Origin: Psammoneis japonica
Taxonomy: Eukaryota
Assembly (NCBI GenBank): GCA_008632985.1
Contig: QPGO01000086.1
Span: 1 to 64,000, forward strand
Reading direction: 5' to 3'
Length of the DNA: 64,000 bases
The position numbers and the translations under genes were made by a program. This document shows positions 28,901 through 55,180 of this stretch, in pieces. Each line of letters opens with the position of its first letter. Within the stretch, counting starts at the first letter, position 1. The notes under the pieces are model-generated. The model ran no database searches, was not told the origin of the DNA, and saw nothing but the letters and a program-made list of their open reading frames with translations.

Positions 28901-30067
28901 CCAAGAGGGCTGCTCTGCAGAGGAAGAGGGAAATGGGCAACAACATTTTGCAAGAACTGTTTTGTGTCAATGGTCGGGTGGGATGTGGCAGCATTGTCTG
29001 GACTTTGATGGAGCATTTGGCGGACAAAGCTTGAGCACAGAGAGTTGTCCACTCAAGCTCCACAAGTGGCACTTTCCAAAGGTGACACCACACATGGGCC
29101 ATGTGTTCATGCATCAACATGCCTCAAGCTGCAAGTCACACAAAAAAACCACCACCAACCTTTCAGCCAACCACCATCATGGACAGAACAGGTCAAGAGG
29201 TTCAAAACAAGAGCGATTCATTGACTCTCTTCTGGTTCCATGCATTCAAGAGCTTCTTGTCCTTCTCAAATGTTTGTTGTGCATTGTTGTCTCTTTTAAT
29301 TCAAGTGCAAAGAGGAGTCACTTTTCTTGTTTCCATCTCTTGAGATGTTGTTGGTTGTTGAGTGATGCAACTTTTGTTGTCACATTTTTGGAAATGTTGG
29401 CAAACCCGATCACTGCTTGATTGTCAACCCATTTGCTGTTTTAAGTCTCCATGGCATAAAATGCCATAATTCCAGAGCCCTCAATTGTTTCATCAAACGC
29501 AGTGCTTTGAAACACGTCCAACATCAACTCGACTCAGTTGAAATCCCAGTTTGTGGGCGATGAAAAATCACGAATGTCAAACAAATGGCTACTTTCGACA
29601 TCAAGATCCCCGAGTTCAATCCAAATGTGACGGTACGCCTCACAGCTTATGGCCATGACACATACAAGCATGCCTCATTGTCATCGCGTCGAGCACTCGT
29701 ATCGAAAATGCCGATAGATCAAAGTTCAGGAAAAGGATGGAATACAAATTCATTTGTGAATTCATTAGTGGCATTGGCGTAATGATATTTACGGCAGAAG
29801 CAATCTAAAATCCTTATTCATCATTGACATTTCTGTATTGCTCAGATTTTGAAATCTGACCACTACCGTTAAGCATTTAGCTGTCTTTGTATGGAAGTGG
29901 AAATGACACTTAACGATTTACACTAACCATTTAGCTTTCTTTGTGTCGAAGTGGAAATGACACTTAACGATTTACACTAACCATTTAGCTTACTTTGGCT
30001 CGAAGTCAGACAAAGAGATTGGGCTATGGGCTTGTCGTTAACCAGCCACGAGCATGAAATCTTTACC
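16973..30067. repeat. Head-to-tail array of five ~2.62-kb TIR-bounded units: 16973-19586, 19593-22206, 22212-24825, 24832-27446, 27453-30067
   Basis: Near-identical units. Left end GGCAATTTTTTCATGTTCGTGGCCGGTTAA is an imperfect inverted repeat of right end TTAACCAGCCACGAGCATGAAATCTTTACC. Spacers are GGAGTC, ATTTC, ATTTTC, ATTTTC. Each unit has an internal 44-bp direct repeat (54-bp period) near its right end. Confidence 0.9.
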
Positions 30068-30740
30068 ATTTTCTCGAAGACGAGACGACGATACTGTACC
30101 TACCATACCAAGGTACAGTACCTCATACCGTACTCATCCCTCATCAAACATACATGAATAAGCATAATCATCATATTATATAACAAAATAATACTAGTAT
30201 CGTATTTTGTGAAGCTTCAAAATTCCAAAAATGAAAATAAAATACTTACTAAATACAGCTAAAAGAGTAGCAAATTACCACTCTTAAAGGGCCCTACTGT
30301 AGTACAGTACTTATTTTTGGTACAGTATCAACTTTCTTGTGTTACTTGGTGAGCGGTCACCCTAATTATTTTTTTCAATGCCAGTTTGAACTTCTGTCTT
30401 GCCCTCAGATTTTTTTGGCGACAGAAAAGGTGACACGACGTTCGCCGTTTCTCTCTCTTCCTCTCATATTTCTCTAATCTTCGATGCGGTAGCCAAGGCA
30501 ACTACCATCATCCTTGTGCCGATTGACACTCTCCCTTTTGCTGCATACTATACAAACGACACGCTCACCTGATCCCCAGACTATCCGTAAGAACAAAATG
30601 GCATTCTTTCTCTTTGCGAATGCGTTCAACAAATGAATGAAGGATGTCTCATATTGTTCATTTTCTGGTTCCTGCGTCTCCCCCAACACAGCTAGGCCTA
30701 AAGGATCGAACAAGAAAATACACAAGACACGCTCATTATC

Positions 30741-31766
30741 ATGCCTGAAAAGGTTGTTGGAATCGTGGATCGTGGATCGGCCTTGTCCGAGAAGAACACG
30801 GTCGTGTGTCGATTTCGCGACTTCAAGTCGTTGGCGAGTACCCGAAAGGAATCTGTCCTATCCCCTTGTTTTGAATGCCATGGACAAATCTGGAGAATGC
30901 TTCTTTTCCCAGGTGGGAGCGAGCATTCTAACAAGAATGAAGTTCACGTTTCCGTGTATCTACGCTGGATAAACGTGGATGAAAGTGACGATAGCACCTT
31001 GGATACCGTTTTTGCATGTCGACTAGGTTCCAAGACCGTGAGGAGCGTACGGCAGCAGTTTCAGCCAGGCAAAAGCAAGGGATTTGGAAACTTCCTCCCC
31101 CGCGCTGACGTTCTCGACAGATACCTTACAAAGAATGGCGACCTTGAAATAAAAGTCGACATTCAGCTTTTTCAAGATATTGAAAAGTATTCGGTTCCAA
31201 GACAAGTGACATACCCCGAGAATACACTCCACCTTGACATGCTTGAAATGCTCAGAGATGAAAAGCACGCAGACGTCACTTTTGTAGTCAAAGACAAGAC
31301 ATTTCATGCCCATCAAGCTGTGCTATGGGTACGCGCTCCTTTCCTTGCGACCCTTGCTGAAGAGCTTGATCAAGTCATCCCGATCCCTGGTGTGGATCCG
31401 GCTTTGTTCGAGACTCTTCTCCACTTTATCTATTCCAACACTCTACCACCTGCTGTAGATATCAAGGCCGACGCCATTGGTCTACTGGAGCTAGCAAACA
31501 AGTTTGATTGTCCGTCCCTAAAGGCGGTGGCGGAAGCGGAAATCTTTGCAAACGGAATCACGGTCGCGACAGCTGCGGAACTCTTACTCTACGCGGATAA
31601 AATGGATTGCGTCGAGCTAAAAGAAGCAACCAAGCAGTTCTTTCTGGAAAACCGGAAGGCTGTTATGAAGTCCAAAGGTTTTGCCACACTTAAAGAGTCT
31701 CCCAAGCTCTCAGGAGAACTGTTGACGGCTCTCTCTGACCTCCTCCCTCCTCAACTCGGTTACTGA
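30741..31766 (+). CDS. MATH-BTB/POZ (SPOP-like) Cullin3 adaptor
   Basis: MATH-like SPCFECHGQIWRMLLFPGG...VSVYL, BTB ADVTFVV..FHAHQAVL..RAP...LLHFIY, and a BACK-like LLELANKF...LK..AE region. Intact ORF in a TA-normal island. Confidence 0.9.
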   Translation: MPEKVVGIVDRGSALSEKNTVVCRFRDFKSLASTRKESVLSPCFECHGQIWRMLLFPGGSEHSNKNEVHVSVYLRWINVDESDDSTLDTVFACRLGSKTVRSVRQQFQPGKSKGFGNFLPRADVLDRYLTKNGDLEIKVDIQLFQDIEKYSVPRQVTYPENTLHLDMLEMLRDEKHADVTFVVKDKTFHAHQAVLWVRAPFLATLAEELDQVIPIPGVDPALFETLLHFIYSNTLPPAVDIKADAIGLLELANKFDCPSLKAVAEAEIFANGITVATAAELLLYADKMDCVELKEATKQFFLENRKAVMKSKGFATLKESPKLSGELLTALSDLLPPQLGY

Positions 31767-33755: not shown

Positions 33756-33866
33756 NNNNNNNNNNNNNNNNNNNNNNNNNNNNNNNNNNNNNNNNNNNNN
33801 NNNNNNNNNNNNNNNNNNNNNNNNNNNNNNNNNNNNNNNNNNNNNNNNNNNNNNNNNNNNNNNNNN
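33756..33866. other. Assembly gap (111 N)
   Basis: Run of N. Confidence 1.
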
Positions 33867-34860
33867 GTCATTTCCTGTCTCTTGGTGCACTCTTCTTTGG
33901 CAAATGCACACACCCTGTGTTTCTCAGAGAAACACAGCAGCTGGCAAAATCATGGCAGCATGTTGGGGTGCAAAGACCTTGGAAATGTTTCATGGACTCC
34001 AGTGTTTGGAGCTGCATTTGTTCTCACAGGATGCACGAATCTAGATTGGCTCCTTCAGAGCATTGCTGGCAATTGCTGTTTTTGTTTTCTTCTTGGATGT
34101 CATTGGCTTCTGTGGGTTTGGCAAGCAGTGGTGCTGCACTCCTCACACTTGTGTTTGCACAATTGTTGTTGCAATCTTTCAAGGGACTGCTGTGCAGAGA
34201 GCACTGCCATCAGCTGTGCATTCTTCAACTTTTGGAGCACTCAAGGGCTTGCAGTTGAGAAATCTCAGGAGAACAGCTGCTTGTGCACTTTCCACATGGG
34301 CCAACTGAATGCAAGCTGTGGATCTGGCAGAAGCAATTTTGCTCAAGGCAACAGTCGTGAGGATCAGAGTGTCTTCAGCACATTGTTTCAACAAGATTCT
34401 CTGTTTTTCTGCTTCTCTCAATTTCAATCATGTGGGGCAATCAACGCCAGCAGCACAGTGCTCTCAGCGGATGCTCATTTCAGTGTTGCTCCTGTTGCAC
34501 TCAAGAGCTTCTACAAAGGTCTCTTCTTTCTTCAAACTGTTTTGGCATCAAAGTGCATTTGACAGATCGGCCCATTCATGATCTTGTTCATCATGCACCT
34601 TTTTCCTTCAATGTGTGGTCTCTCATTTGTTGTCAATGTTTGGGCACAGCGTTGTTGCTGCTTTTTGGTTGTTCTTTGTTTGATGCCATTGACTGTCCTT
34701 CACTGACAAAGCGCAAATCCTCTCCATCAAATGCAGCACACACATGGGGCAAGTCTGCCTCAAGATGAGCAGCAATGTCCACCAGACATGTGTGAGTTGC
34801 CCACGTGCTGTTGGCATCATTGTTGCTTTGAACCAGACGGAAGCTCTTGGTTGCAAAAAC
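33867..34860. repeat. Unclassified dispersed repeat A, copy 1
   Basis: Colinear diverged homology to ~47730-48800, e.g. GGAGCACTCAAGGGCT and TTTCAACAAGATTCTC. Confidence 0.7.
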
Positions 34861-35489
34861 TGCCCAATGTTTGTGATTGAACAACATGCACAGGGGCAGC
34901 AAGCACCTGTTGGCACAATTTGATGTGGCTGTCTGCAAAGTCAAAGTCCATCAATGTGAGAATAGCTCTGATGGTCAGCTGAGGTTGCAACCCCAACAAG
35001 CGGTGCAGCTGCAGATCTTGGGCCAAAACTTTGGCACTTTCAACCAAAATCATGTCAAAGACATGGCATTCACCATTGTTGTGGGGCAGTTTGGTGTCAG
35101 CCATGAGCCAACCAGCTGTGGCTTGCACATTGGAAACCAATCTGTCACAAAAAATTGGGTGTTGCCTTGTTTGTGGCAAAGTCAGGGCAGAGCTGTTGTG
35201 CCCAGCCTGCTCTGGCAAAAATGGTGCGGCAATTAACAAGATCATCAAACGTGTCATGGGAGTGGCAGAAAGCTGAGTTTGATTGCACAGCATGCCAGCA
35301 TTGATGTGCTTGCCTGGAAAACCCTGTGCAAATTGCCCCAGCTTGACAACTGTGGGTTTGCTGCTCTCCATCACAGCAGAAGCTCCAGCCAATGAGAGTG
35401 CTGGCAAGCAAACCACAGAAGCACCCAAACTTAGAATGAGATGTTCTCTGTGCCCTGATGTCAACAAAGGCATCAGATGCTGCACTTGC

Positions 35490-36920
35490 TTTCATCTCCT
35501 GTCAAGGGAAGATGAGTGCTCTTTTCTGCATCTTTGCAAAGCCCACTCCAGTTGTGGCATTTGCCAAGAATGTGACTTGCTCTTGCTGGTGATTTTGGCA
35601 ACCCCCAAAGCTTTTGGGTGGGTGAATTTTTTTGTGGTGACAAGGAGCTTGACAAGACATCTCAACTCCTTTCATGTGCAAGTGCTTGCAGAGCCGCTGC
35701 ACAAACTGTGCTCCCAGAGCATGCAGATGATCTTGCAGAAGCTGCTGGAGCTGCACTTGTGTGGCTGTGTTGCTTCTGGAGTGGCTGTGTTGCTTTTGCC
35801 AATGTTGTGATTTGCTGCAATGGTGCTGGCAGCAGCTGCATTGCTGGTCAAATTGTTGCCCTTCTCTCATGGCAACACCACCTGCATTGCTGCAACAGAG
35901 TCCTTGGTGATCTTTCCCAACAGGCGCATGTTCCTAAAGAATGCCATCATGACAAAAATGGCAAGGATTAAAGTGCACATGATGCCATTCCAGCAGTGCA
36001 TCTTGGCACCACCACCGCTTGGCAAGCAATGGTTGAAAGCCCCCCAGACATCCATGCTCTTTCTGTCTCAAAGTTGCACAGTTTCAGTGCTTGTGCAGCA
36101 GCCACATTTTTCAAAGGAGTGGGTTTAAGGAAGCAAAAAATGGGGACTGATGAAAGGCTGGAGTCAAGTTGGGATGATGAGAGCAACAATTGTGAGCCAT
36201 TTTGGCACGCTCGATGAATTTTGAAATGGGCAAAAGACAGCACAACATTTTTGGAACATGCCGGCAAGCATTTCTGAATTTAGTGCAAGGTTGTCTTTGT
36301 TGAAAAAATGTTTTTTAAGAAACTAACAATGTCACAATTTTGGGTTCTTGCTCCAAAATTTGTGCATTTGTGGTGGAAAAGACCAGTTGTGGTTGGCCAA
36401 CAAATGCCCAAAATGAGAATTTTCACAAAAATCAATGACTCAAAAGTGCGGCATCCAGCTCAATGATGGCCATTGGCACAAAGAGGTTGAGCTGCAGTTT
36501 GACTTGATCAACACCCTTTCTTCATTTGCAAAGCCGCTTGCCATGAGAGGGGGTGGTTGGTTGACCCCCCTTTTTGGTTCATGCATGGGGGTGTGTGAAG
36601 ATTGCTTGGTTTTGGAGAGTGCCTTGTGGTGGTCAAGACCAAGTTTCTCACCTGAGCAACCAGGAAAACTGAAAGAAATGCATGGGCCAAAGCTTGAAAG
36701 AGGGCACCCGAACAAGCCCTTCACTGTGGCAAGGAGGAGAGTCTGTCATGTCCTGATGTGTGCATCCAAGGTGATGTGCAGATGACCTTGCTTTTGGTTG
36801 CTCCAGCATGGCAGGATTTTTTGTCCTGAGTGCAAAAATCTTCTGTCTGACATTGGACCCTGCTTCTCGGTGGGAAAATTCGTCCACAACAGCCGCAGCT
36901 TGTTGGCCAACAAACCCTTG
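35490..36920. repeat. Unclassified dispersed repeat B, copy 1
   Basis: Homologous to ~58330-58700 and ~60100-61250, e.g. TTTTCAAAGGAGTGGGT and GGTGGAAAAGACCAGTTGTGGTTGGC. Confidence 0.7.
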
Positions 36921-37696
36921 CTTGTCTTGCAGCCTCCACAAGTTTCTTGTCAACTCACTGGTGCTTTTCTTGCTCCAACTTCACAACTCCCATCTCCTGC
37001 CAGCTCTGTGTTTCATCACAGCAGACACAAAATGTTTGCATTGTTTGACTTGCGCCCCACACAGCAGCACTTGCTTTTTTCATTTTTTCTTGATGACCTC
37101 CATGCTGCTGCTTCATTTGCAGCTGGCACAACTTTCTGTGCACTTTTTTCAACCTTTCTTGCCATCCACCCTCCACCCTCCACCACACCTTCCTGCCCTC
37201 CTGCCCTTGTTGGTGTTCAGATGATCTTTGCATGTCTTTTTCTGAAGCTTGGTTCCAGCGCATGTTCGCTTCTGTGAGCACAACAACAAAGCACTCATGT
37301 CATCAGCTCTGTGCTTTGCTCTGCTTGTTTGTGTTCATGTGTGGCATGTTTTGGCTTTTTTCATGATGGGTCAGTGTTGGTTTCTCAGAGCTCAACTTGT
37401 CCAATCAAGCTGGCTGGTTGTGCCACCAGCCAGTCATCCCAGAGTCGTTCCAAGCCAATGAGTGCAACATCATTTCATGTTGCTCAGTGCAATTTGTCCA
37501 CATTTTCAGCATGAAAAATGCTTTGAACACCATTTGCTTTGAAAGGTTTTCAAGACCATTGGTGTGCAGAAGTGAGCGTGTGAGTTCCAGGGCATGCATT
37601 TGCACTTGTTTGGTGTGGCATTTGAGCTGGAAGGGAGAAGGACAGATGCCGCAGCCACTCACAGCTCACAGCCCATCTTGAAAACGGACCAAACAA

Positions 37697-38606
37697 TGAC
37701 AATGTCAACGGCATTCTTTGTTGTGGCACTCGTCACCGCCTGTCAAGGCCGCAGCAGCAGCTGCGGTTGAGAAGAGGAGCGCCACATGTCCCAATGGCTG
37801 CTGTCCCTCCAGTCACACTGGGTGGGGCTGTGGCCCCTGCGGTGCCCCTGCAGACTTGTCAAGACAAGTGGATTGCTGAGGGCAATCACCTCGGTGGCGA
37901 TCATGCAAACCTCCTCAATTGTTTCTCCACCACCGGGGCAGCACCAGCACCTTTGGCCAACTTGCTTGAGCACCTGACAGCCGCAAGCAACGTGGTCCCC
38001 AACCCCCTGGTGATCCACTGCTGTGGGCGCACTTCTGCTCTGCTGCTCTGCGGAAGAGTGTCTTCCGAGAAACAATGATGACACCAGGTGGATGGGTCAC
38101 TGCACGACCACCAACACAGACGGCAATGATGTTGTTCTTTAAGAACTGCTTGTAAATCAAGGAGAAAATTAATCATCTGGTTGACCTGAGCAGCAACAAG
38201 GAATTTAATTGCCCAGGATGCTTGGACCTAAAGCGATGTGTTGACCTTTGCCCGGCCGAGTTCAGTGTCCCAAGGAGCAATTCTGTTTCGTTGCCACAAC
38301 ATCACCAAAAGAGTGCAGCTCTCTAAAGAGGTGCGATTCGAACAAGCTGCGGTTTGAGCCCACCCACGCAATGGCAATCATGGCTGTTGCCTTTTCTGTG
38401 GTTTGGTGGTTCGTCATGTGACAAGCAGGAAAGGCAAAAGCTGAGAAGATGGCCATGAAGAAGAGGAGAGCCAAAGAGAAAACATCTGAAAACATCTGAC
38501 GAAGAAGATGGAGAAGAGAAACAGAGGGCCATGGACGTCTTTGGAATTAGATGCACCAGATGCAACCATTGACATTGAATTCAAAAATCTCAGATGGGTG
38601 CTGCAT
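37697..38606 (+). pseudogene. 5' part of an ABCG half-transporter pseudogene (Cys-rich ectodomain, TM segment, start of NBD)
   Basis: Cys-rich degenerate region, hydrophobic AIMAVAFSVVWWFV segment, then IDIEFKNLRWVL. This is the motif that precedes the ABCG NBD, which continues at ~46680. Confidence 0.5.
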
Positions 38607-38660
38607 GTCTTTCCTGCGTTGGCAGGACCGAGAGCTGCAAGTCAAAATGTCAAAGTCATT

Positions 38661-38868
38661 TTGTCAATGTCATTTCGGACATTTCCACATGTCGCTCACG
38701 TCATCGAGATTCAAATCTCTTCTCTTCTCACAAATTTGGTCGTTGAGACCTCTCCTCAGTTTGCAATCATAATTTCTCCACAGAGAACTTTGACAACGAC
38801 TTCTGCTGCTCCATTGCAACCTTGAGCTCTTGCTCTTTCTAACACAAGCTACTTTGTCGCATCTTCAG
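38661..38868 (+). repeat. 5' LTR (shared portion; may extend ~50 bp further left)
   Basis: Matches 46403-46612. Ends ...CATCTTCA and is followed by PBS-like TGGTCACGAG. Confidence 0.85.
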
Positions 38869-39374
38869 TGGTCACGAGTCCCAATTTCGCATGGCGTTTG
38901 TTCCGCCGCCGGGAAAGCGCTGTCGATTGGGTCATCAAAGCTTCCATCTGCCACCAACGTCGATTCGTTCGTTTCCACCAAAACGGTCACGTTGTTTGAC
39001 GTCTGAACGACACCTCCAGTCAATGTCAGACACACCCTGCGTTGCCACTAGCCGCCATTGTTCGATTGACAAGATGGCAGCCCATTTTGCTTCGCGGAAT
39101 CGATCTACGATCTCCAACGAGTTCCGAACTTGAAACCCCAACGTCCGTGTGTTTCAAACCAAACCCGGATCGAGTTCCTGCGACTCTCCAGTCCTTTGTC
39201 AATCAAGAACAGCTCCTCAAGTCACGTCACGGGTTGCTCATGTCGTGCCATTGATTGTTGCAATCGTTTGGCGCCGTTCTTCAAGCTCTGCGACTCGAAG
39301 TTCGTTCCATTGATCCATTGTCGAGTTGACTGCGTACATTTGGCACCACAGCTGGACAAAAGTTGTCTCTGCCA

Positions 39375-41687
39375 TGACGAACAATCCTCCTCTGCCCAAG
39401 ACTCCTGCCAGTCAGCCTCCGCCGCCTCCCACGGCACAACAAAACCAGTCGACAGGTGCTGCTGCACAACAGAACCAGTCGACGGGTGCCGCCGCTCAAC
39501 AGAACCAGTCCACCGGTGCCACCGCTCAACAGAACCAGTCTGCTGGTGCCACTGCTCAACAGTCGTCACGTTCCAACGTTCAGCACCCTCGTCCACCTCC
39601 GGTCCATGGTGGAATCCATCCGGAATGTGGTCGCTGCATGGGTGGATCACCGCTGGATGATGACTGCCATCTCAAGCTCAAGCGCACCTGTTGCTCTGCC
39701 AACCAGTCTCGGGACAAGAAGATTCTTCCTCACACAGAGCGCAATCTCCGAGATGCCCGAGATGGAGCCGACGTCGTCAAGTTCGACGGGAACCTGGAGA
39801 TTCCTGATGGCAAGACGAATGAGCTCGACAAGGAACACTTTGTTCAAGCAGTCCGCACGTTAGTGAATGAGCATGGATTGGAAAATTTTTTCGTCATGAA
39901 GTTGGACAAGAAGGTCGTTGACCTCTTCACTCACCTCCACAGCTTCGCCGTTGACGAGGTCATTGCAGAGCATGACGAATGCGCCAACAAGGCAACAGAC
40001 GATTCGGCACACGACGAACATGAGCACGACGATGTCAATCTTTCACATCTTGTCGTCGAGTCTCGCATCACTCACCAACTCTGCGAGAAGATTGAAACTC
40101 AGTTCGGTCATCGCGACCTCTTCCGTTGCCACCCTGGGCAAATCATTTTTGTGATGGCACTTGAGACTTGCAATGCCTCCACCGTGCATGATGTCGCTCA
40201 AGCTGCTGAAGACTTCGAGGATTTGACGCTTGACTCCTGTGCTGGCGAGGATGTTGCCGAGTTTGCCACCGAGGCTCTCCGTCTCACCAAGATCCTGCAA
40301 ACAGGATGCATGCTCCCCGTCTCTCTTGGGTCCGATCTCCTTCGGAAGTGCTCCAAGACCTCTGGCGAAGCGCTCAATCGAGCAATCTTTGCCCAGTTAG
40401 ACAAGGTGACGGCCATGGAACGCAAGCATCGTTTGATGGACCCAGCGCCACTTGCCAAGGACAAGGACTGCGGAACTCTTGGTCTGACTGCGTGCATCAC
40501 CTCTTCCTTCAGACGAGGCATCGTAACTTCGTCACCGATGAGGGCTGGCCCGGTCTCTCCACTGAACTCCCTCAGGGCAACCACACCTGGCGCAAGGGAG
40601 CTTGCAACGCTTGTGGTGCTCCAGACCACTGGGCCAATGACAAAAAGTGTCCCAAGCATGCGGAACGTCAGCACCTGAAGAAGCTTGCCCGCCAACAACG
40701 CAAGGGCCAACCGCCAGCAGGGACTCCACCCCCTCCCGGCACCATCACTCCAGCGAATGTGCCTGCGGACAAACAAGCGAAGTTCAAGGAGCTGTTGGCA
40801 AACGAGCCCCATCGCTGCACTCGTCCGGCTGATCTCAACCAGCCAGTCGTGAACAAGTGTGGTTCGACTGCTCACTTTTGCACCAAGTGCACGTGCCACC
40901 ACACTGGCATCAAGGGCCTCTGTGCTGGTCACAAGGATGGTGCCCATGCCAACAAGCCACCCAAGAAGGAACAGCCGGATGCCAACCTTGCTTCTGTGCT
41001 GATCCCGATTCCGGCGTGCCGGCTGGGCCACCCACTCAGACCACCGCCGATCCTGCATCTTCCAAGCCCGATCCATCGTCTGACAATGATGCTCCCCCCA
41101 TTTTGGAGGAGGAACCAGTCTGGACCAGGTTCTGTTGCTGTCCTGTCGAGGACGCATCCGGCAATGCTGCTCCCGTTGTGCGAGTCTCCGTCCTTCCCAG
41201 CCCCACCGTTGAGAGGGAGCAGCGCGCAATTTTGGTTGAGACGGTTGACCCGGAAGACGCTGACGATTTCAGCGATTGCTGCGACACTCACGACAATTTG
41301 GATTGGGATGATTCGGTCATCCTCTTTCCTGCTTCGATGTTCCCACCGGAGCCTTCTATCTTGGACAATCCGCCGCCTCCTGTTGAGTCTCCTGAGCTTG
41401 ACGACGAGTTCTACGACACGATCACTGAGCCTGCTCCGAATGTCCTTGACGTGGAACCTCAGCCCACTTCTTGCTGGCTCTGGTCCCTCCTCAAGATCCC
41501 AGTCTTTTGGTTCTCTGCTCTTCTTTGGGAAGGCATCCTGTGGCTGGTGGGTGCTGGTGGTGACCCGCCGCCGCCCTCGCGTTGCTGTCGCCATCTCAAG
41601 CGCAAGCCCACTCTTTTCAGTTGTCCGTGTCGTTGGGGCGTGATCTCCTGTGCAATTGCGCTTTGGCTCTCCATCTGTCTTGGCTGA
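39375..41687 (+). pseudogene. Copia gag-like ORF (frameshifted) with a 30-bp tandem repeat encoding QQNQSTGAAA
   Basis: ORFs 39326-40678, 40306-41643 and 40857-41687. CNACGAPDHWANDKKC knuckle-like motif. Four repeat units at ~39436-39560. Confidence 0.7.
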
Positions 41688-41711
41688 GCCCCGCCCCATC
41701 CTGGTGTTCCT

Positions 41712-44700
41712 TTGCAGTGCCTCTGCTCTCAGACCCACGCAGTTCTTCAAGCTCTTGACGAACGTGTCGTCTTGACCCCTGGCACCCTGCTGCAGCATCA
41801 CCATCTGAAGATCAAGCAGTTCCAGCATGAGGTCTTGGCACCAGAGGGAGCAACGCATGACATGACGACCTTGCCTTTCAAGCTTCACGAGTTGATCGAG
41901 GCCTGTGAGCTCAATGACTGCTTTGACACCTGTGAGGACCTGCCTGTCTTTCAAGAGTCCTTCTTTGATGCTGCTGCCTTTCGCGAGTTGGACTTCTCCA
42001 GTCCTGACATCTTTGGGATCTCTGAGTTGTGTCGAGCCCACCATGTGGTCGACTGCACCGAGTTCCAACCTTCTGTCGCGGAACTGGTTGCTCAAGCTGC
42101 TGGTGCGTCCCCTGCTTCCATTGGACAACCTGCTGCAGCTGCTGTCCAGGCTCTCACAGGAGCCACCCAAATGTCTCACCTGGCTGGGGACCCTGCCGTT
42201 CTCATGTCCGTCGGGCAGTCGTCACTGGAGGTCGTCTTCGATGCTGGCACCTTGCTTGCTGTCTCTCCAGATGAGGAGGACTTTGATGGCGAGATTGAAC
42301 TGCTGTCTGAGCCTCTCAAGCTTGGTGGGATGGCCAACGGCCTTCCCGTCGAGGGCGTTGGTGCTGTCTCTTGGTGCTTCCAGGCTGCCGATGGCAGTGA
42401 CGTCAATGTCCAGACTCGCTGCCATTGTGTCCCTCGTTCCAAGGTGCGCCTCCTGTCCCCTCAACGTCTCTTTCATCCTGCGGGCATTCGAGGCCATTTT
42501 TGGGGCGACAGTGAGATCTTCAAGATTTGTTTTTACGGCACACCCGAGATCCAAGTTCCGTGCGATGAGCGCTCAAACTTGCCGGTTGGTTGTGCATCTT
42601 GCGGCGCTGTGTTCACTCCTCAGGTCAATTTGAGCGCTGTTGCTGACACTGACAATCTCAATCTGTCCTCTGGGCAGAAGCTGCTCATGGATGTGCATGC
42701 TCGGTTTGGGCATCTCAACTTTCCATGCATCCAAGCTCTTCTCTGCCGGCCTCCTTTCACCGCTCTCAAGTTCGCATCTGCTTCCAAGTGTGACATCCCC
42801 AAATGCAATGCCTGCAAGCATGCCAAGGCTCACCGCCGTCCTGCTTGGGCCCAACGGAAGACTGCTGTCCCTGAACGCGATGGTGCACTCAAGGCTGGTC
42901 ATCTCCATCCAGGTCAGTCCGTGAGCATTGATCACTTCGAGTCGCGTCTGAAGGGTCGCACCTGCGATTCCCGTGGCAAACCCTCCTCCCAGCAGCATGT
43001 TGGCGGCTGTGTTTTCGTCAATCATGCCTCTGGGTTCATGCACACTGAGCATCAAGTTGGTTTCTCTGCAGTTGAGACGACACGGGCAAAACAAGGTTGT
43101 GAGCAGATGGCTCTGGGTCATGGTGTCGTCGTGCAGGAGCACCTTGCCGACAATGGTGCTTTCAAGGCCAACAAGTTTGTCACCCACATCCGCGAATCTC
43201 AGCAATGCATCCACTGTTGTGGAACGAACGCCCATCACCAGAACGGCATTGCGGAGCGGTCCATTCATTCCACATCCAACATGGTGCGAGCCATGATCCT
43301 CCGCGCGTCCATCCATTGGCGCGGTGGCATTGACAGCTCCTTGTGGCCCATGGCGGTCAACTGTGCCGACGCGTTCCAGCCCTAGGTGGGAGCTCGTAGT
43401 GCTGACGTGTGACAACAATAATTTTTATCATCCGTCGTATGTTTCGTACGTAGATTTCTACGTGTGATGATTAAAAAAAATTGTCCAGACTCGCTGTTTT
43501 GCGAAGCCCCAGACGTTTTATATAACAAATTTATAGAAACAATAATGCGCCAGTTACATTCTTCAATGTCTGAAGAATGTAACTGGCTAAGTAAAAAATG
43601 ATGTACTTCAATCATGTGCGAGTTTGTGCGTTCGCAAAATTGCCTCATTTTCTGTTGGCGATCATTGACATTTTAATTACCGTATAATTTTACTACGGAG
43701 CTCGCAGGTAGAAGTCTGCGGGCCCAATGTCACACGGATTCCCACCTGCGTCTGGAACGCGTCTGCCGCCCACATCTGCAACAACACTCCGGGATCAAAT
43801 GGACTTTGTCCTGCCGACATTTTCACCGGATCCACCGTCCCACGCCACCGTTTGCTCGATTTACATGCTTGGGGTTGTCCTGTCTGCGTCTTGGATCCCA
43901 AGTTGCAGCAAGGACAGAAATTGCCGTGTTGGCAACCACGATCACGGTGTGGTGTTTTTCTTGGCCTCAGCTTGGTTCGCACTGGCAAGGTTCCACTGGT
44001 CCTGAACTTGAATGCCAGGTCCATTGCTCCTCAGCATCATGTGGCATTCGACGATCTCTTTGCCACGGTCGCATTGATCGAGAGGGAGAGCAAGCCACCT
44101 GATCACTGGGAAGAGCTCTGTTTGGAGAGTGTCACCCAGATGCCACTGGATTCGAGCAACAAACAATTGTTCCTCCAAGACAATTGGCTCACTCCTGCAG
44201 AACTCCAGCAGAAACAGTGACATGAAGAACGTGAGCATCTCGTCAGGAACACATGTCAACAACAGCCTGCCGCTACGAAGTCTTCGAAGCCCATCGCTCC
44301 AGTCATCGAACCGCTGCCATCCACACGTCCCAACACATCCATGCCATCAAATTCAGATGACTTGCCATCGGCGCCACCCCAGGAACCGCCATTGCAGCCA
44401 CCGCAAAACCCCAGTCCATCAATGAGCGATTCTGAAGTTGGTCATGCACCGCCTCCCGCACATCCGCCACCTCAATCTGGCCCGGAGTCATCGGACATCC
44501 CAGTCCCGGCTCCTGATGTTCCAGTCCCATCCACGACTGAGCAGAACGTGCGTCGCTCACAAAGATCAAACAAAGGCAAGCGAGCTACAACTCGTTTTGC
44601 TGACGAAGTCCATTTGGCCTCAGTGGAGCCATTGGATGCTGGAGGACACCATTCCCAGCTCGCCTGTCTTGCTGAGATCCAGACCTGCTGTGACAGTGGA

Positions 44701-46393
44701 CAGTTGGATGTTCAAGACCCTCGTGTCTGCGCTGCAAAGGCCAAGAAGAATGACGATGCGCCAAACATGCGGGAAGCTCTCACAGGCAAATTCGCCGAGC
44801 AATGCGTCGAGGCCATGAAGACTGAAGTGGCCACGCTTGTTCATCGTAAAACTTGGAAATTTGTCAAGCGCGATTCATCTGTGAACACACTGAAATCAAC
44901 ATGGGCATTTAAGTTGAAATGCTTGCCCGACGGCACTCCGCTGAAATTCAAGGCTCAATTTTGTTGTCGTGGCGATTTGCAGCAAGAGGGAGTCGACCAC
45001 TTCAAGACTTGCGCTCCAGTGGTCCAGTGGTCGACTGTTCGTTTGCTGTTGAGTGCTGCATTGCAAGAAGGGTGGACAACTCGTCAAGTTGACTGCACAA
45101 ATGCGTTTGCACAAGCTGACATCACTGAAGACGTTTGTGTCGAACCTCCCAAGTGCTTTGGTCATCCTTCAGGTACGAACGTGGTTCTCAAGCCACTCAA
45201 GATGCTCCATGGGTTGAAACAAGCCCCGAAATGCTTCTGCAAAAAGCTTTGCGAAGGATTGCTTGAACGAGGGTGGATTCAGTCAGCTGTAGATCCATGT
45301 CCATTCTTCAAGGATGGTGTGATTTGTGTCGCATGCGTCGATGACACCATCCTCGCTGGTGCCAACGGAGACCTTCTGGAACGCGAGATTGCCGCTCCAG
45401 GAATTCAAAAGGAAGAACAACGTCACATTTTTGAGCTTCGTAATGAAGGAGAAGTTGGCGACTTCCTGGGTGTCAAGATTCGCAAGACCGGACCCAAGGA
45501 GTTTCTCCCAACTCAACCAGGTCTGACTGATGAGGTCCTCAAAGCTGCTGGCATGGAAGATTGTCGTCCTTCTCCCATGCCTTGCACTGCTTCTCCATGC
45601 CATGCTGATTCAGAGGGAGCCGATTTCGCTGAACCATGGGATTGCCGGTCCATTGTGGGGTGCTCATGTGCTTGTCGGCAAACTCCCGTCCCGATGTCAC
45701 GTGCGCCACCCATCAAGCCGCTCGCTTCTCCTGCGCTCCCAAACACTCTCATGCTGTTGCAGTGAAGCGCACTCTTCATCATCTTCAAGGTGCCAAGGAC
45801 AAGGGCCTCCATCTACGCCCTGACGACAACCAACGAGTTGATTGTTTCGTGGGTGCCGATCTTGCTGGACTCTGCGGTCATGAAAACTCCCAAGACCCCG
45901 TGAGTGTCAAGTCTCACACAGGACACGTCATTTTGCATTGCGACTGTCCCATTCTGTGGGTCTCCAAGCTGCAGATGCAGATTGCCCTCTCCACTGTGGA
46001 GGCAGAACATCTGGCACTGTCGGCTGGCATGCGCGACCTGATTCCCATCCGAGAAATTTTGAAAGAAATTCAGCATCACGCACTCGGGCACAAGAATGCT
46101 TCTACTCCCACTGCTGCCAAATCTGAAGCCTTTTCTGATGTGAAAGATGGCGCGATTCCTTCCTCCATCGTCTGCGAGGACAACCAAGCGTGCCTCAAGT
46201 TCGCGAAAATGGCGAAGATGTCTCCTCGCACCAAACACATTGGCATTCCCTGTCATTGGTTCCACACTAAAGTTGAAGCGCTCGAGATCGTCATTGAGCC
46301 TGCAGGAACCGACTCTCAGCTTGCAGATCAGTTTGCAAAGGGGTTGGTCCAAGCTCTGTTTGAATCCGGTCGGAAGAGTCTGTCTGGCTGGCA
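41712..46393 (+). pseudogene. Copia pol (PR-IN-RT-RH), inactivated
   Basis: Domain motifs with Tyr->Cys/His substitutions, a MITE inside IN, a frameshift near 45660, and the likely terminal LxGW* read as TGG CAG. Confidence 0.9.
43368..43763. mobile_element. 396-bp MITE, copy 2 (TA-rich, essentially unmutated), inside the Copia integrase
   Basis: TIRs GACGCGTTCCAGCCCTAGGTGGG and CCCACCTGCGTCTGGAACGCGTC. TSD TGCC at 43364-43367 and 43764-43767. Removing it restores SLWPMAVNCAAHICNNTP. Confidence 0.92.
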
Positions 46394-46402
46394 GCTCTGC
46401 GG

Positions 46403-46612
46403 TTGTCAATGTCATTTCAGACATTTCTGCATGTCACTTACATCATCAAGATTCAAATCTCTTCTCTTCTCACAAATTCGGTCATTGAGACCGACCCTCT
46501 TCAGTTTGCAATCACAATTTCTCCATGGAGAACTTTGACAACGACTTCTGCCACTCTGTTGCAACCTTGAGCTCTTGCTCTTTCTAACACAAGCTGCTTT
46601 GTCGCATCTTTA
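46403..46612 (+). repeat. 3' LTR (5' part and polypurine tract apparently missing)
   Basis: Colinear with 38661-38868 and begins ~10 bp after the end of RNase H. Confidence 0.85.
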
Positions 46613-46679
46613 GTCTGTGCTCTTCTTCACTCCGAACTTCTGGTGGTCTTTCAGCTCACATTGTCCTCCAAAGCCTTTC

Positions 46680-47720
46680 CATTCCAAATGTGAGATCAAT
46701 CATCCGTGGTGTCTCTGGGAACTCGGCTGATGGAAACCTTGCGGCGCTAATGGGTTCGAGTGGTGCAGGCAAAACTAAGGTGGACAGGACTGGGGGCACC
46801 CTCAAGGTGAACGGAATTGAGACTGAATTGACACGGTGCCGCAGCACTTTGTCCCACAGGAGAATGTCATGATTTGTGACCTTGCAGCTGCAGCGAACAT
46901 TCTGCACTCAGCATCAATGCACCTCCCGATCGACGGGTCAAATGAGAAGAAGCTCGCGCTTGTTGTCGACGAGACAATCGACTCCCTCGACATTGATCGT
47001 CTTTGTGATTACGTCGTCCGAGAAGAGAATCGCCGGGGGATCAGTTGTGGGCAGCGCAAGTGTGTCAACAATCTGTCGAGATGGGGATGAAGCCAAGTGT
47101 TCTTTGCCGCGACGAGCCAAATCTGGTGAGCTGGAATCGACTGCATCTCCAGCAGTTCGAGAAACTCAAATGATTTGCAAAATCGGGAAAAAGCGTCACA
47201 TGAGATTTTTCTCCTGTTTGAGATGCTCCCACTCCTTGGCAAGAGCGGCCGCACCTTGTGTTGCGGAAGTGCTCCACACATGAAAGAGTGCTTTGAAAAA
47301 CGAGGATTGCGGTTGCCACTGATGGCCAATCCTGCCGATTGCACATGGACAGAGAGTGGCTGTGTGCTCCTGCGAATCCGGGCTCTGTCTCTCTGGAGGT
47401 GGCTAAACGCACTGCTGAAAGCAAGAGAGAACAGAAGTGTCGGAAAGAGATTTCGGTAGAGTGTGCGTCGGTGTTCAAGCACATTTTGCCGATCTCTGCA
47501 AACACCTCTTTCGAGAGTCTGGCAAGGACAAAAGGGGTCATCAAGCAGCTCCCGGTGTGCTCACTCAGTTTCTTTTGCTTTTCGATAGATTCCCGAGTCT
47601 GCCGTTTTGTGCGATGGCATCCCAAGCACCTTGAGGACACAGATGGCTTCTGGCAGGGACATCTGAAAGAGAACGTGACCCGGTCAGATCGAATCCCATC
47701 CAATTCTGACCTCTGTGCAC
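46680..47720 (+). pseudogene. ABCG (White-type) transporter NBD pseudogene, 3' part
   Basis: IIRGVSG..ALMGSSGAGKT (Walker A), FVPQEN, RGISCGQRK (signature), and EIFLLF..LLGKSG..FEKRG..PLMANPAD. Multiple frameshifts. Confidence 0.85.
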
Positions 47721-47729
47721 TTCTTCTTG

Positions 47730-48800
47730 CTTGTCATGTCCCACCTCTCTGTGTGTTCTTTTTGGCGAATGCACACACTCTGTGATCTTCAGAGAAACAC
47801 GGCATCTGGTGAAATCGTGACAGCACATTGGGCTGCAAACACCCAGGAAACATTTCATTGAATCCGGTGTTTTCAGCTGCGTTCGTTCTCATCGGATGCA
47901 CGAGTCCGGATTGGTTCCTTCAGAGCAATGGCACTTGCTGTGTGTTCTCTTCGTGGATGTCATTGGCTTCTGCGGGTTTGGAATGCTCACAAGGCTGGTG
48001 GTTGACAAGCTGTGGTGCTGCACTCCTTGCAATTGAGTTTGGTGCAATTGTCACTGCAATCTTTTTAGGGACCGCTGCACACAGAGCACCACCATCAGCT
48101 GTGCATTCTTCATCTTTTGGAGCACTCAAGGGCTCGCAGTTAAGGAGCATCAGGAGAACAGCCACTTGTGCGCTTTCGACATGGACCAACAGAACGCGAG
48201 CTGTGGATCCGGCAGAAGCAATCGCTCGAGTCGACAGTTGTGAGGATCAGAGCATCTTCAGCACATCTTTTCAACAAGATTCTCCGTTTTTCTGCTTCTC
48301 ACAATTTCGATCATCTGGTGCAATCAATGCTTGCAGCAGCAGCTAGAACAAACACAACATCTTAAAATTGTTGGTGATTCTGCTCTCTACATTTGACCAA
48401 TCGTCGAATCCCAGCACTCTCAGCAGATGCTCATTTCAGTGCTGTTCCTGCCGTGTGCCATGGAACTTCCCAAAACATCTCTTTCTTCAAACTGTTTCGG
48501 CATCAAAGTGCATTCGGTGGATGGGCCCAATCATGTTTGTCGTGCACCTTCCTCTTCAATGTGTGGCTCATTCGTTGTCGACATTCGGGCACGGTGTCGT
48601 TGTTGCTTTTTGAGTGCTCTTTTGACACCATTGACTGTCCTTCACACTGACAAAATGCAAATCCTCATCCTGGAATCCACGTTTACATCCACACGGGAAA
48701 GTGTGCCTCAAGATTGGCAGCAACATCCACCAGACAGTTGTGAATTGCCGAAGCACTGGTGTTGGTCTTGTTTGGAACCAGATGGCTGTGGAACAAAGCG
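47730..48800. repeat. Unclassified dispersed repeat A, copy 2
   Basis: Homologous to 33867-34860. Confidence 0.7.
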
Positions 48801-48915
48801 GCTTCGAACACTGCCGGTGGTAGATAGAGCGGTAAAAAAATGTTCATTCGTCCTGGTTTACGCATCCTCATCACAAACTAATTCACGTCGTCGAGCGACT
48901 CTAATGTTGTGCAAC

Positions 48916-49965
48916 TCAATTCTCGAAGTCAACCCACCAAATCTCATGCTGAAACGGATCGTCCGAGCCGCCCTGGTCTTCAAAGACAGCCGAGAAATGA
49001 TCGCATTGTCCCGGGTCTTTTGAAGCTTCAACACCGACTTTGTCAATGCAATGTTCACCATTGCCAAAGTTCAAGTCAAAGCCAGTCACAACGCTCCTGC
49101 ACGTCGGCAAACCAGCAAACCTAAAACCACATTGGGACACAGCAACATCACCTCGTTCCGGTCCAAAAGATCCGGAATGAGCAACCTTGTCACTCGGGAC
49201 AAGAGCATGCCGGATGTGCCATTCAAAGGGATCATCCCTGCCATTGTCTTCCAAGCAAACTTGAATCGTCGGCGAGGACTGGTCATCACTGACGCGAACC
49301 CGAATGTGGTCGATGTTGTTGTCGACGTCTGCACCTGCGCACCAAACCTCGAATCCTTGAAGAACACAGTGGCGCCCCGGAGAGTGGAATTTCGATGATG
49401 AGAAGCACCCTTTGTGGGGCCCACCAATGTCCCACGAGCCAATGTCCTGGTGCCTTGTTCCTTCAGGCATTGCCACTGCACGAACGTCGCAGCAGCACGG
49501 ATCGTCACCACTCTTGTCGGCAAAACGAGTCTCAACATGATGAGTGTGAGGCCAAATGCCCAATCCCCTAAAGCTCCTGTCGTTGTGAACGTTGTCAAGA
49601 GTGAAGCAACTGAAACTGGGCTTTCTGGCGAAGCTTCCGCCGATCCAATCGGATTTGCCCTGCCATCCTGTGGCATTTCCTTTCCCCGTCAATGGCTGCG
49701 ACGGATCCTTGCAGTTGAAAGGAGCATGGACACCACAATCCCAGCGGCTGTTTTCGTCGCAGGTGTTTTCACAGCAGTCGCCACCGTCACATCCACACTC
49801 TGGGACATTGCAGTTCTCAAGGTTCGAGTCGCTGCTGTCACACCAACCATCGCCCACATGGCTGGGCGTTTCAGTGTGGCACCTGGGATGTCCAGGAACT
49901 TGTTGCCCACTCGAGAGCTTGAGCACCACCAAGAGTGCGCCAGTGATGACTTGACCAATCTTCAT
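48916..49965 (-). pseudogene. Secreted LNR/Notch-like-domain protein gene with an open frame but no Tyr codons
   Basis: Signal peptide and GDGWCD...NCNVPECGCDGGDCC, where the consensus has N-Y-N and G-Y-DGGDCC. No Tyr in 349 aa. Confidence 0.7.
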
Positions 49966-50159
49966 TGTTCAGCATGCCTTCAAACGATTTGTGGCGATGG
50001 TCGCCAGGTTTTGATTTCATCATTGCAGCATTCTTGCCGCGGTCTCTTGACTCTTGAGTCTTGGGTCGAACGCACTTTCGCAAATCTCTTTTTACGGACA
50101 TTGCGGTGGTGAGCATTGTTCGCGCTTCACTTGTCTTTGGACAAGCTCCATTTGTCCAT

Positions 50160-53434: not shown

Positions 53435-53523
53435 AAACAATGGCGTTCATGCTTTTTGTTGTGATTGATGGTTGCAGGCATTCACTTGAGAAATGAGCTC
53501 ATGATGAAAGAGCCAAGCAGTGG

Positions 53524-55180
53524 GTGAAATTGGAAAAACAGCTCCAGAAACTGTGCAAAGAGGCATGTGAACACGATCAATCAGAAGTGGAGAAATGCTG
53601 GCAGCGACTGGTGCATCCACAAGGGGACATCATTCTGGAGGTTGTCAATTGGCTCAAGAGTGACAACACTCCATTCATGCAGTGTCCATTTGAAGCAGAA
53701 GCTCAGCATGCAAAGCTGCAGAAGGATGGTCTTGTTCAATGCACCATGTCAGAGGATGGGGATGTCTTTGGGTGTGGCACAAGCAAGTGGACAATGAATG
53801 TGAGACATGAAAGCAGCAAGTGCTGCACCCTTGATTCCGCTGTTGTTTGCACAAGAGAGAGTGCCGGTGGAGGCAGATGGAGCAGTTTTTTGTCGGTCAC
53901 ACCAGCTTTCAGGGGTTGCGACTGCAACGTGAAACTGTGCCGGCTTGACTTTAAGAAAGAAATGGACGCACATGCATCCAGCAATGAAAAGCACACATTT
54001 TTGCTTGACATCAAGTGCCGCCACAAATGGCCACCCAAAGCAGCTGGGGAGAGGTTGTCTCTGAAGCCTGCAGCGGGATTTGCTGCAGATGCTGAACAAA
54101 CAATCAACATGTTCAAGGCACACCCAATTTTCTTTCTGACACCAACAGAGACTGACAATGGCGCTTGTCTGAGCAACAGTGTGAGTCATGCTGTGGGTTC
54201 ACTCACCCCTTTTTGAATGATGTCAATGCTTGCATTGTGCCAGCCCTGATCACTGGGGGGTGCAAATTGGATTTTCCTTGTCACCGGTGGCTGTGTTGTC
54301 TGCAAACAGAATCCCCTTGGACAAGTGTGATGACATGATGACAGCGTCACTCTGGGGAAGGTCAGGATGTCCATTGGCAGAGCAAGCAATGCCATGTCAG
54401 TGCCATGACAATCGGTGCCTTGTTCAGCACAGAACAGCTGCAAATTTTGATCCAGAGGATGGTGGAGTTCCTCCTGAGCACTGTTGCGACAAAGTGTTTT
54501 TGTTTCTTGAAAGCTGACCAAAGTCTTCATCCGTTGCATGCTGGGCAACATCAGCCAAGACAAGCAGAGAGTTGTTGAGGGAGACAAAGCATCTTCTTGA
54601 GGTTGGGAGCAGGCCAGGGATCCGAGGTCTAAAACCAAAGGCACTGTCTGAGTTTTGGAAAGAAACAGGCTTGTTTTTGATGAATCTGACATTGTCTGTG
54701 AGAGATGGCAAAATGCTGATTTTTGATGATGCAGATGTGATGAGCAGTGTTCAACCACTGTGTGAAACCAATGATGACATCATCGCCAATGCAATCTTTG
54801 CCAAAATGAGAAACGGTGTCCAACATCATGCATGCCGGCACATGGACAGGGGGCATTGTGACATTGATGCACTTGGCTGCACCCATGTCATGTTCAAAGA
54901 GAGCCAGGAGCCTGGACTCACACTTCAAATTTTAGTCACACCATCTCAAAAAGCAAGTCCATGCTGAGCGCACCATGCATTCAACCATCTTGGCCAATTT
55001 TGCAAGTGTCCTGCAAGTCATTGTGCATGCCCTGCTGTGAAAGGCTGTTCTCACTTTCTTGGATGCTTGGGCATTTTTCATTTGATCCAAGTCAACAAGG
55101 GTTGGATGAAAGAAGAGCTGAAAGCAGCATGTCCACCACCAGTCAAGTCAATTCAGAGTCTGCCGGTTCCCTGGGAAGCT
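53524..55180 (+). pseudogene. XPG/Exo1-family nuclease-like region followed by a SWIM-like zinc finger
   Basis: CPFEAEAQ..L...GLV...SEDGDVFG.G and GCDC (from GCDY) match XPG-I motifs. CACPAVKGCSH at 55022-55054. Confidence 0.65.

Follow-up and report, generated by a model that had tools for sequence, protein, structure and literature searches.

Loss of TpA dinucleotides from a dead Copia retrotransposon and about 50 kb of DNA in the diatom Psammoneis japonica

The Copia element and its lost tyrosines

We analysed a window of 64,000 nucleotides of the diatom Psammoneis japonica (positions 1 to 64,000 of contig QPGO01000086.1, assembly GCA_008632985.1), in which a reading made from the letters alone (the sequence-only reading) had picked out positions 44341–46393 as Copia coding sequence with cysteine or histidine in place of invariant tyrosines. 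This range is the 3′ half, with reverse transcriptase (RT) and RNase H, of a dead Ty1/Copia retrotransposon that extends from long terminal repeat (LTR) to LTR at 38661–46614. The data presented below show a TpA-specific transition process that acted on both strands of genomic DNA, independently of CpG, with a preference for TAY (Y, pyrimidine; R, purine) and with sharp limits. The element is composed of the following parts, given with their strand and the evidence for each.

38661–38869, plus strand: 5′ LTR, direct repeat with 46403–46614
39314–40678, plus strand: gag-like open reading frame (ORF), matched by relatives in tblastn, no Pfam match
41688–43385, plus strand: protease/integrase part of the polyprotein, matched by relatives in tblastn; weak gag_pre-integrase match (E = 0.0014), below the Pfam cut-off
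43369–43763, no strand assigned: insertion resembling a miniature inverted-repeat transposable element (MITE) that interrupts the integrase; 395 bp, 12-bp terminal inverted repeat GACGCGTTCCAG, flanking duplication TGCC(G)
43669–44220, plus strand: C-terminal SH3-like part of the integrase (SH3_retrovirus, E = 3.5e-05), ending in an in-frame TGA
44221–45765, plus strand: RT ORF (RVT_2, PF07727, E = 1.8e-29, 103.5 bits, cut-off 31.6)
45633–46391, plus strand: RNase H part, in another frame than RT, matched by relatives in tblastn, no Pfam match
46392–46394, plus strand: CAG in place of the relatives' stop codon, where the relatives' protein ends
46403–46614, plus strand: 3′ LTR, direct repeat with 38661–38869; the pair is 89% identical

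Integrase lies upstream of RT, as expected of the Copia gene order, and relatives are colinear with the element over 39–46 kb. The closest proteins are Copia polyproteins of 2000–2300 amino acids with ~60% identity, two of which are named as Fragilaria crotonensis; the element is of the type presumably covered by the diatom Copia family name CoDi. Its catalytic motif is not intact (YVDD reads CVDD), and its frames are broken by an in-frame TGA at 44218, at least two frameshifts and the 400-bp MITE insertion. The TGA stands in an arginine column and fits a change from CGA, and the shift of frame from RT to RNase H occurs near 45.63–45.77 kb, the RNase H ORF extending over 45633–46538. Four to five tandem 30-nt repeats (AAQQNQSTG, rich in Gln, Asn and Ala) are found at 39420–39569, near the start of the gag-like ORF.

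We determined codon changes at conserved columns by aligning 95 relatives with normal Tyr content to the window by tblastn and retaining columns with at least 30 aligned relatives and at least 70% agreement, which gave 762 columns in total. None of the 33 Tyr columns is kept in the window, compared with 601 of the 729 other conserved columns (Fisher p = 3e-24). Twenty Tyr columns read Cys (TGY), nine His (CAY), three Phe and one Leu, so that 29 of the 33 are Cys or His; the Leu column, at 45642, is a second-frame reading in the frameshift zone and is to be discounted. The gag-like Tyr columns at 39665, 40010, 40019, 40307, 40469 and 40519 read Cys or His, as do seven of the eight protease/integrase Tyr columns, the eighth reading Phe. 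Since every Tyr codon starts with TA, Tyr is turned into Cys when A changes to G and into His when T changes to C.

All seven altered motifs named by the sequence-only reading (CVDD, GVDHFKTCAPV, VDCTNAF, LHGLKQAP, EAEH, CEDN and IPCHWF) are present in the frames given for them. The accompanying claim that their Tyr positions are invariant holds for six columns, where Tyr occurs in 91 of 92 or in all aligned relatives: CVDD at 45334 (TGC; Tyr in 92 of 92), TCAPV at 45010 (TGC; 92 of 92), VDCTNAF at 45094 (TGC; 91 of 92), LHGLKQAP at 45208 (CAT; 92 of 92), EAEH at 46008 (CAT; 88 of 88) and IPCHWF at 46251 (TGT; 83 of 83). It has to be softened for the GVDH column at 44998, where the relatives carry 49 Tyr, 42 Phe and 1 Cys, and for the CEDN column at 46173, with 56 Tyr, 23 His and 8 Phe. 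As had been read, Tyr is absent from the ORFs of RT (0 of 515 codons in 44221–45765) and RNase H (0 of 302 in 45633–46538).

A Copia lineage in which Cys or His is the natural residue in these columns, or in which TA is avoided by codon choice, has next to no probability. Over the Tyr columns, Tyr occupies 2282 of the 2549 cells of the relatives, and Cys (11) and His (42) together account for 53, or 2.1%, which removes the concern that such residues are natural there; YVDD retains its Tyr in 92 of 92. An alignment-based scan of metagenomes yielded 80 related Copia loci, whereas no relative emerged when the mutated protein was the sole query. None of the 80 loci is TA-depleted (TA observed/expected at least 0.42, median 0.62), and they contain no 1-kb window below a TA observed/expected of 0.2. 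In favour of a natural composition, some distant relatives are low in Tyr (P0106, P0109, P0110, P0115 and P0117 at 0.3–1.2% and P0248 at 0%, compared with a median of ~3%), and 1 of 148 representative relatives is Tyr-free. The five full-length low-Tyr relatives nevertheless keep YVDD, and no xVDD motif was found in P0248; these six proteins, which come from public assemblies, may represent partial hypermutation of copies elsewhere. To judge from the related sequences, TA loss is not a trait of the Copia family.

The remaining codon changes follow a similar pattern. Among the 161 conserved columns that differ from the relatives, 50 are accounted for by a single TA to TG or TA to CA step and 27 by a CpG to TpG or CpA step, leaving 16 other transitions, 34 transversions and 34 multi-step differences. 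Twelve Arg columns at which the window has His, Cys, Gln or stop fit the CpG step. The sequence-only reading had derived Leu to Pro from CTA to CCA and Ile to Thr from ATA to ACA: all four Leu to Pro changes do read CCA, whereas only one of the four Ile to Thr changes is ACA. The three Val to Ala changes all read GCA, and 10 of the 14 first-position A to G changes (Ile or Met to Val, Thr to Ala) follow T. The lost terminal stop after the LxGW motif was recognised correctly: 79 of 81 relatives end after the Trp at 46389–46391, so that a stop is expected at 46392–46394, where the codon is CAG and only one relative aligns a residue.

Base composition predicts 114.8 TA dinucleotides for 44341–46393, where we counted 9; none of 2000 shuffles had fewer than 90, which excludes chance. 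Because TAA and TAG stops are gone, long frames are open in all six phases. In two Copia parts, TAA plus TAG number 15 and 17 on both strands together, as against 200 and 127 TGA; the statement that frames were left largely open is correct in this respect and has to be qualified for the TGA at 44218, the frameshifts and the MITE.

Extent, direction and context of the TpA loss

The depletion extends far beyond the element, and the following features of the window bear on it.

12251–63500, no strand assigned: TpA-depleted, CpA/TpG-enriched block, TA observed/expected 0.00–0.18 per kb outside islands
16968–30067, no strand assigned: tandem array of five 2620-bp units, 98.9–99.6% identical by self-BLAST
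18978–19560, no strand assigned: island of unit 0 of the array, hypermutated part-way, from alignment to the consensus of units 1–4
53497–54213, plus strand: remnant of an XPG/FEN-like nuclease gene (XPG_I, E = 2.3e-11)
30702–31763, plus strand: MATH-BTB host gene in a TA-normal island (BTB, 3.9e-18; MATH_2, 1.4e-09)
9897–11807, minus strand: TM9SF host gene in TA-normal DNA, 636 amino acids, intron-free, 67–75% identity to diatom proteins

TA-normal islands within the block lie at ~19.0–19.6, 21.5–22.2, 24.1–24.8, 26.7–27.5, 29.3–32.0 and 43.37–43.76 kb, and a map in 250-bp steps shows abrupt edges of the TA-depleted DNA, among them those at 12.25, ~30.07, 32.0 and 63.5 kb. TA observed/expected is 0.48–0.78 in 1–12 kb and 30–32 kb; the MATH-BTB island, with 0.75 and 0.63 for 30–32 kb, serves as an internal control. 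CA/TG observed/expected reaches 1.3–2.3 in the depleted block, compared with 0.99–1.37 in host DNA. The ratio of TG to CA is 0.92–1.10 in all nine segments, that is, close to 1 in every segment, so both strands are affected alike. CpG observed/expected is 0.08–0.36 in most of 13–29, 32–38 and 52–63 kb, whereas the Copia and 46.6–52 kb retain a CpG observed/expected of 0.63–0.92 despite TA values of ~0.04–0.18. The CpG and TA losses are thus uncoupled along the window and represent two separate processes.

TpA loss is not Copia-specific: it covers ~50 kb, including the XPG-like gene remnant. Aligned to P0389 (51% identity), the XPG-like ORF has lost 8 of 8 Tyr (4 Cys, 3 His, 1 Phe); in a large protein collection it has two relatives of similar length, P0389 and P0390 (45%). 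The remnant sits in DNA depleted of TA and CpG alike and may stem from a host duplicate, a transposon or a virus. The TM9SF protein (named matches in Epithemia, Mayamaea, Nitzschia, Cylindrotheca and Fistulifera) places the host among the diatoms, probably the pennate ones. Both host genes, TM9SF and MATH-BTB, are TA-normal, the Copia is depleted, and most of the block is without recognisable origin. Pfam searches with 85 ORFs of at least 110 amino acids from depleted DNA returned no family, and those with 14 longer or hand-picked ORFs returned MATH-BTB (host) and XPG_I alone.

Two further ORFs in TA-depleted, CpG-normal DNA may be mutated gene remnants: a Tyr-free, Cys/His-rich ORF of 350 amino acids on the minus strand at 48919–49968, and a short ORF at 46588–47090 with the Walker-A-like motif GSSGAGKT, neither of which has a Pfam match. 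On the host side, in TA-normal DNA, the ORF at 4076–5910 encodes tandem Cys-rich repeats of ~50 amino acids (KCxxCGExKxxxxFSxxQW...GQCLxCLP) with 68–73% identity to each other by self-BLAST. An assembly gap of 111 N at 33756–33866 lies within a TA- and CpG-depleted part of the block.

The tandem array allowed us to read the direction of change within the window. In each unit, a TA-free stretch of ~2 kb is joined to a TA-normal island of ~0.6 kb, and of the five islands only that of unit 0 is hypermutated. Compared with the consensus of units 1–4, unit 0 is changed at 23 of 36 TA sites (15 TG, 8 CA), all 23 within the island at 18978–19560; of the 13 sites kept, 9 lie in the island. At the TA sites, A changed to G or T to C without exception; these sites account for 23 of the 24 changes in the island. 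The other private changes of unit 0 comprise one CG to TG (in the island), one CA/TG double change, one transversion and one single-base indel; columns at the unit boundaries align badly. Since units 1–4 agree on TA, the direction is from TA to TG or CA, and the changes arose in genomic DNA after the units had become separate. The same direction, which the sequence-only reading had inferred from conserved residues, is borne out by the Tyr columns of the relatives, the 80 TA-normal loci and the four TA-keeping units. The 23 outcomes along unit 0 form 12 runs by an eye count, compared with ~11.4 expected, and give no indication of one-strand tracts. Double differences of CA vs TG, at columns 431/432 and 1547/1548 of the alignment, set unit 0, and units 0 and 1, apart from the rest of the array.

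The LTR pair provides a second comparison of this kind. Its 189 matches are accompanied by 20 mismatches, all transitions, 18 of which fall in Y-R/Y-R dinucleotide pairs; they include three TA/CA, one TA/TG, six CG/CA-or-TG and four CA/TG double differences. The two copies have diverged almost solely at TpA and CpG, which excludes editing of an RNA intermediate as the sole source. Array and LTRs together show that the process acted on genomic DNA after the LTRs and the array units had become separate copies.

The broader possibility that A-to-I hyper-edited retrotransposon RNA, modified by an ADAR/ADAT-like enzyme, was reverse-transcribed and integrated is very improbable. It would account for a 5′ preference resembling the one for U among RNA-acting adenosine deaminases, as discussed by Mettrop et al. 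(bioRxiv 10.64898/2026.01.13.699255), and sense-strand Tyr to Cys changes do exceed Tyr to His (20 vs 9). Sense-strand T to C is, however, equally common over the sequence (TG/CA ~1), the two LTRs differ at TA sites, and DNA outside retroelements, namely the XPG-like ORF and the unit 0 island, is altered as well. The 3′ preference found here is moreover for a pyrimidine and not for G, the base that ADARs prefer on this side.

The same data bear on a model without a dedicated mutator, in which a slow context bias in methylated heterochromatin, for example T:G mismatch repair biased in favour of C:G, would have worn down TA and CG jointly into CA/TG over a long period; very-short-patch repair in Escherichia coli is held responsible for a comparable loss of CTAG to CCAG or CTGG. 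CpG decay co-occurs with TA loss (0.08–0.36 in most of 13–38 and 52–63 kb), both decays end in CA or TG, and CpG-type and TA-type LTR differences are about equally frequent. We nonetheless consider this model improbable: the two decays are uncoupled in the Copia and in 46.6–52 kb, unit 0 has 23 TA changes vs 1 CpG change, and the placement of 18 of 20 LTR differences at Y-R steps implies rates far above background.

The MITE is TA-normal, with 27 TA compared with 33 expected. In a DNA sequencing run (X1) that contains the stretch, its bin reaches a summed word depth of ~73,000, compared with ~67 in the single-copy flanks, these depth figures being sums of word depths and not copy numbers. Two contigs of this run join 43363 to 43764 without the MITE. 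Its normal TA content and the MITE-free contigs indicate either that it inserted after this copy had been mutated or that it is not a target.

Contigs built separately from run X1 also bear on the reality of the TA-poor sequence. They differ from the window by one other letter in 46581–50000, three in 37636–38679 and eight in 33867–37648. Across the Copia, which 2536 contigs cover at a likeness of at least 85%, they show 831 transitions and 172 transversions; the window and the run contigs differ at 1018 places. The match of the contigs to TA-poor DNA rules out an artefact of assembly or polishing. An artefact in the wider sense, in which the sequencing platform or the polishing misread modified bases of the repeats, retains a very small chance: among the samples listed, the stretch is present in one of DNA and in none of RNA, and run X1 may be the source sample of the assembly and so provide no independent confirmation; runs X2 and X3 contain almost no sequence matching the window. 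Besides the nearly letter-for-letter match, the frameshifts, TGA and MITE are those of an old dead copy, the tetranucleotide hierarchy is graded and the loss ends at sharp element edges, all of which argue against misreading. At 37485–37486 and 38873–38874 the window has CA and the run X1 contigs TG, as expected if a single TA (or CG) of the ancestor became CA in one haplotype, strain or copy and TG in another.

We compared the sequence context of surviving TA sites in 37.6 kb of depleted DNA with that of 595 TA sites in normal DNA. Among the 138 survivors, 81 are YTAR and 3 RTAY, whereas normal DNA has 110 YTAR and 169 RTAY among its 595 sites. Relative to normal DNA, the density of survivors follows a graded order: none at ATAC/GTAT (0 of 88) and ATAT (0 of 38), ~0.02–0.03 for ATAG/CTAT, GTAC and ATAA/TTAT, ~0.09–0.12 for CTAG, CTAC/GTAG and GTAA/TTAC, 0.30 for CTAA/TTAG and 0.42 for TTAA, which survives best. 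Unit 0 behaves alike, with 7 of 7 RTAY sites changed and 6 of 8 TTAA sites kept. Tyr codons preceded by a pyrimidine became Cys in 15 cases and His in 3, those preceded by a purine Cys in 5 and His in 6 (p = 0.048); with the XPG-like ORF added, the outcomes are 16:3 vs 8:9 (p = 0.033). Where TAY is present on one strand alone, that strand was hit in 22 of 28 sites (p = 0.004). These data define the motif as 5′-T-A-Y when written for the strand with the A to G change, which is the same as R-T-A for the strand with the T to C change.

The equivalence of the two descriptions leaves room for a thymine-side mechanism, in which a TET/JBP-type hydroxylase or another modification of T in TpA of silenced DNA would lead, through mispairing with G or misrepair, to T to C. 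The signature is strand-symmetric, so the attacked base cannot be read from the sequence, and the context on the other strand would be R-T-A. 5-Hydroxymethyluracil in dinoflagellate DNA is reported to favour TpA and TpC; we know of no thymine modification in diatom repeats. Modified thymines have little mutagenic effect, in contrast to the change of 23 of 36 TA sites in unit 0 beside only a handful of other differences, and no such modifying enzyme is encoded among the window ORFs searched with Pfam. We therefore regard this mechanism as unlikely, although it deserves the most weight among the alternatives.

Proposed mechanism

The best overall explanation, to which we assign a probability of about 0.72, is a TpA-erasing hypermutation of the dead Copia and ~50 kb of DNA, its chemistry being deduced from the pattern of changes. 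The process turned CTA, GTA and ATA into CCA, GCA and ACA, caused TAA and TAG stops to vanish and converted the terminal stop into CAG. Adenine deamination in DNA is the most likely chemistry: adenine would be deaminated enzymatically to hypoxanthine, which would be read as G at the next replication, and the deaminase would require a 5′ T, as has been suggested for the signature in Bigelowiella natans. The enzyme would probably act in bursts on silenced or foreign DNA and so serve as a genome defence. One unit hit out of five, together with untouched host genes and an untouched MITE, points to episodic action on particular elements instead of a diffuse regional bias. A separate, slower decay of CpG to TpG or CpA runs alongside the TpA loss.

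Several observations weigh against this interpretation or narrow it. (i) The evidence describes a historical end state in one 64-kb window. (ii) The LTRs retain more TA (3 each in ~210 bp) than the Copia interior, and part of the interior TA loss could predate this insertion. (iii) The 20:9 excess of Cys over His is accounted for by context only at p ~0.03–0.05. (iv) Hypermutation of unit 0 alone among the five units, and the normal TA content of the MITE, are at odds with a targeting that simply follows the copy number of repeats. (v) A thymine-side mechanism would leave an identical palindromic signature. (vi) No target-site duplication was found for the Copia, as the 5-mers flanking the LTR ends do not match; either the hypermutation may have removed it, or the two LTRs might derive from two elements that recombined.

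A bolder extension of the hypermutation reading is that diatoms own a dedicated DNA-level defence against silenced or invading DNA, a natural DNA adenine deaminase acting at 5′-TAY in bursts on both strands of the duplex until no TpA, and hence no Tyr codon, is left. In view of the like signature in a rhizarian alga, it would be part of an ancient TpA-editing immunity across the stramenopiles, alveolates and rhizarians (SAR) and a mirror image of the repeat-induced point mutation of fungi. We put it forward tentatively, as a possible but doubtful generalisation from this locus.

Significance and known systems

In the sources covered by our search, a preprint of 2026 on a chlorarachniophyte is the one earlier description of TpA-only hypermutation, and the present locus is a second occurrence, in a diatom. 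TpA hypermutation is accordingly not peculiar to one species or to giant-virus inserts, and it may be a widespread algal counterpart of repeat-induced point mutation (RIP). The process has testable parameters: it affects both strands, follows the order TAT/TAC >> TAG > TAA with TTAA refractory, is CpG-independent and has boundaries at the level of elements. A hunt for the enzyme becomes feasible in diatoms, an ecologically dominant group in which several species are open to genetic work; a natural A-to-G DNA enzyme of defined context would be of interest for base editing. In annotation, Tyr to Cys or His replacement combined with absent TAA and TAG provides a simple mark of such relics, and the absence of these stops explains spurious long ORFs in six frames.

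The closest known system is that of B. natans. According to the preprint, 231 of 302 new nuclear mutations in mutation-accumulation lines fell in two integrated viral regions, and 230 of these 231 were A to G or T to C, all stated to be on TpA; TpA-depleted coding sequences (CDS) were enriched in RT and DDE domains, and an ADAT2-like adenine deaminase was put forward as a proposal (Mettrop et al., bioRxiv 10.64898/2026.01.13.699255). The integrated nucleocytoplasmic large DNA virus (NCLDV) and virophage DNA of B. natans thus resembles the present locus in A to G and T to C changes at TpA and in clustered TpA depletion with CpA and TpG enrichment; hypermutation there is described as restricted to certain regions of non-host DNA, with normal mutation elsewhere in the genome. 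The two cases differ in host (a stramenopile diatom here vs a rhizarian chlorarachniophyte), in target (an LTR retrotransposon and unrecognisable DNA vs a giant virus), in depth (TA observed/expected ~0.05, near saturation, vs a reported Rho of 0.45 in the NCLDV region) and in time (a historical end state vs new mutations in lines). The terms trinucleotide, tetranucleotide, flanking and diatom are absent from the main text of the preprint; relative to that main text, the hierarchy of TAY >> TTAA, the Tyr-to-Cys/His readout and the place of action are additions of the present analysis. Beyond B. natans, our literature search, which lay outside subscription journals and bioRxiv supplements, returned no report of TpA-directed hypermutation for diatoms.

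ADAR A-to-I hyper-editing and APOBEC3 G-to-A mutation are clustered transitions that inactivate animal retroelements, and adenosine deaminases prefer a 5′ U or T. These enzymes act on RNA or minus-strand complementary DNA (cDNA) and leave a one-strand signature common to both LTRs, whereas the changes found here lie on both strands, differ between the two LTRs and extend to DNA outside retroelements. With the Ty1/Copia elements of diatoms the present element shares RVT_2, an integrase upstream of RT, LTRs and ~60% identity to Fragilaria crotonensis and to many diatom-like contigs; unlike these relatives, this copy is dead, with CVDD, no Tyr, a TGA, frameshifts and a MITE.

Diatom transposable elements are described as CpG-methylated, and diatoms as having RID-related DNMT4 genes of unknown function, for which the source, as far as consulted, gives no mutational signature (PMC9998398). 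Decay of 5-methylcytosine at CpG, as would be expected for such methylated elements, is seen here too in the 27 columns with CpG to TpG or CpA changes; it explains the CpG part alone and cannot remove TpA. Fungal RIP is similar in that it kills transposons in place by transition-only DNA hypermutation in a dinucleotide context, on both strands and with sharp limits (PMC9998398). It is described as changing C to T mostly at CpA, thereby creating TpA and lowering GC (PMC9998398), whereas here TpA is destroyed and GC rises. RIP is triggered by duplication; here, one of five tandem units is hit, a high-depth MITE is untouched and Copia-related sequences are present in run X1. Fungal RIP is a functional analogue of the process described here, with the opposite chemical direction.

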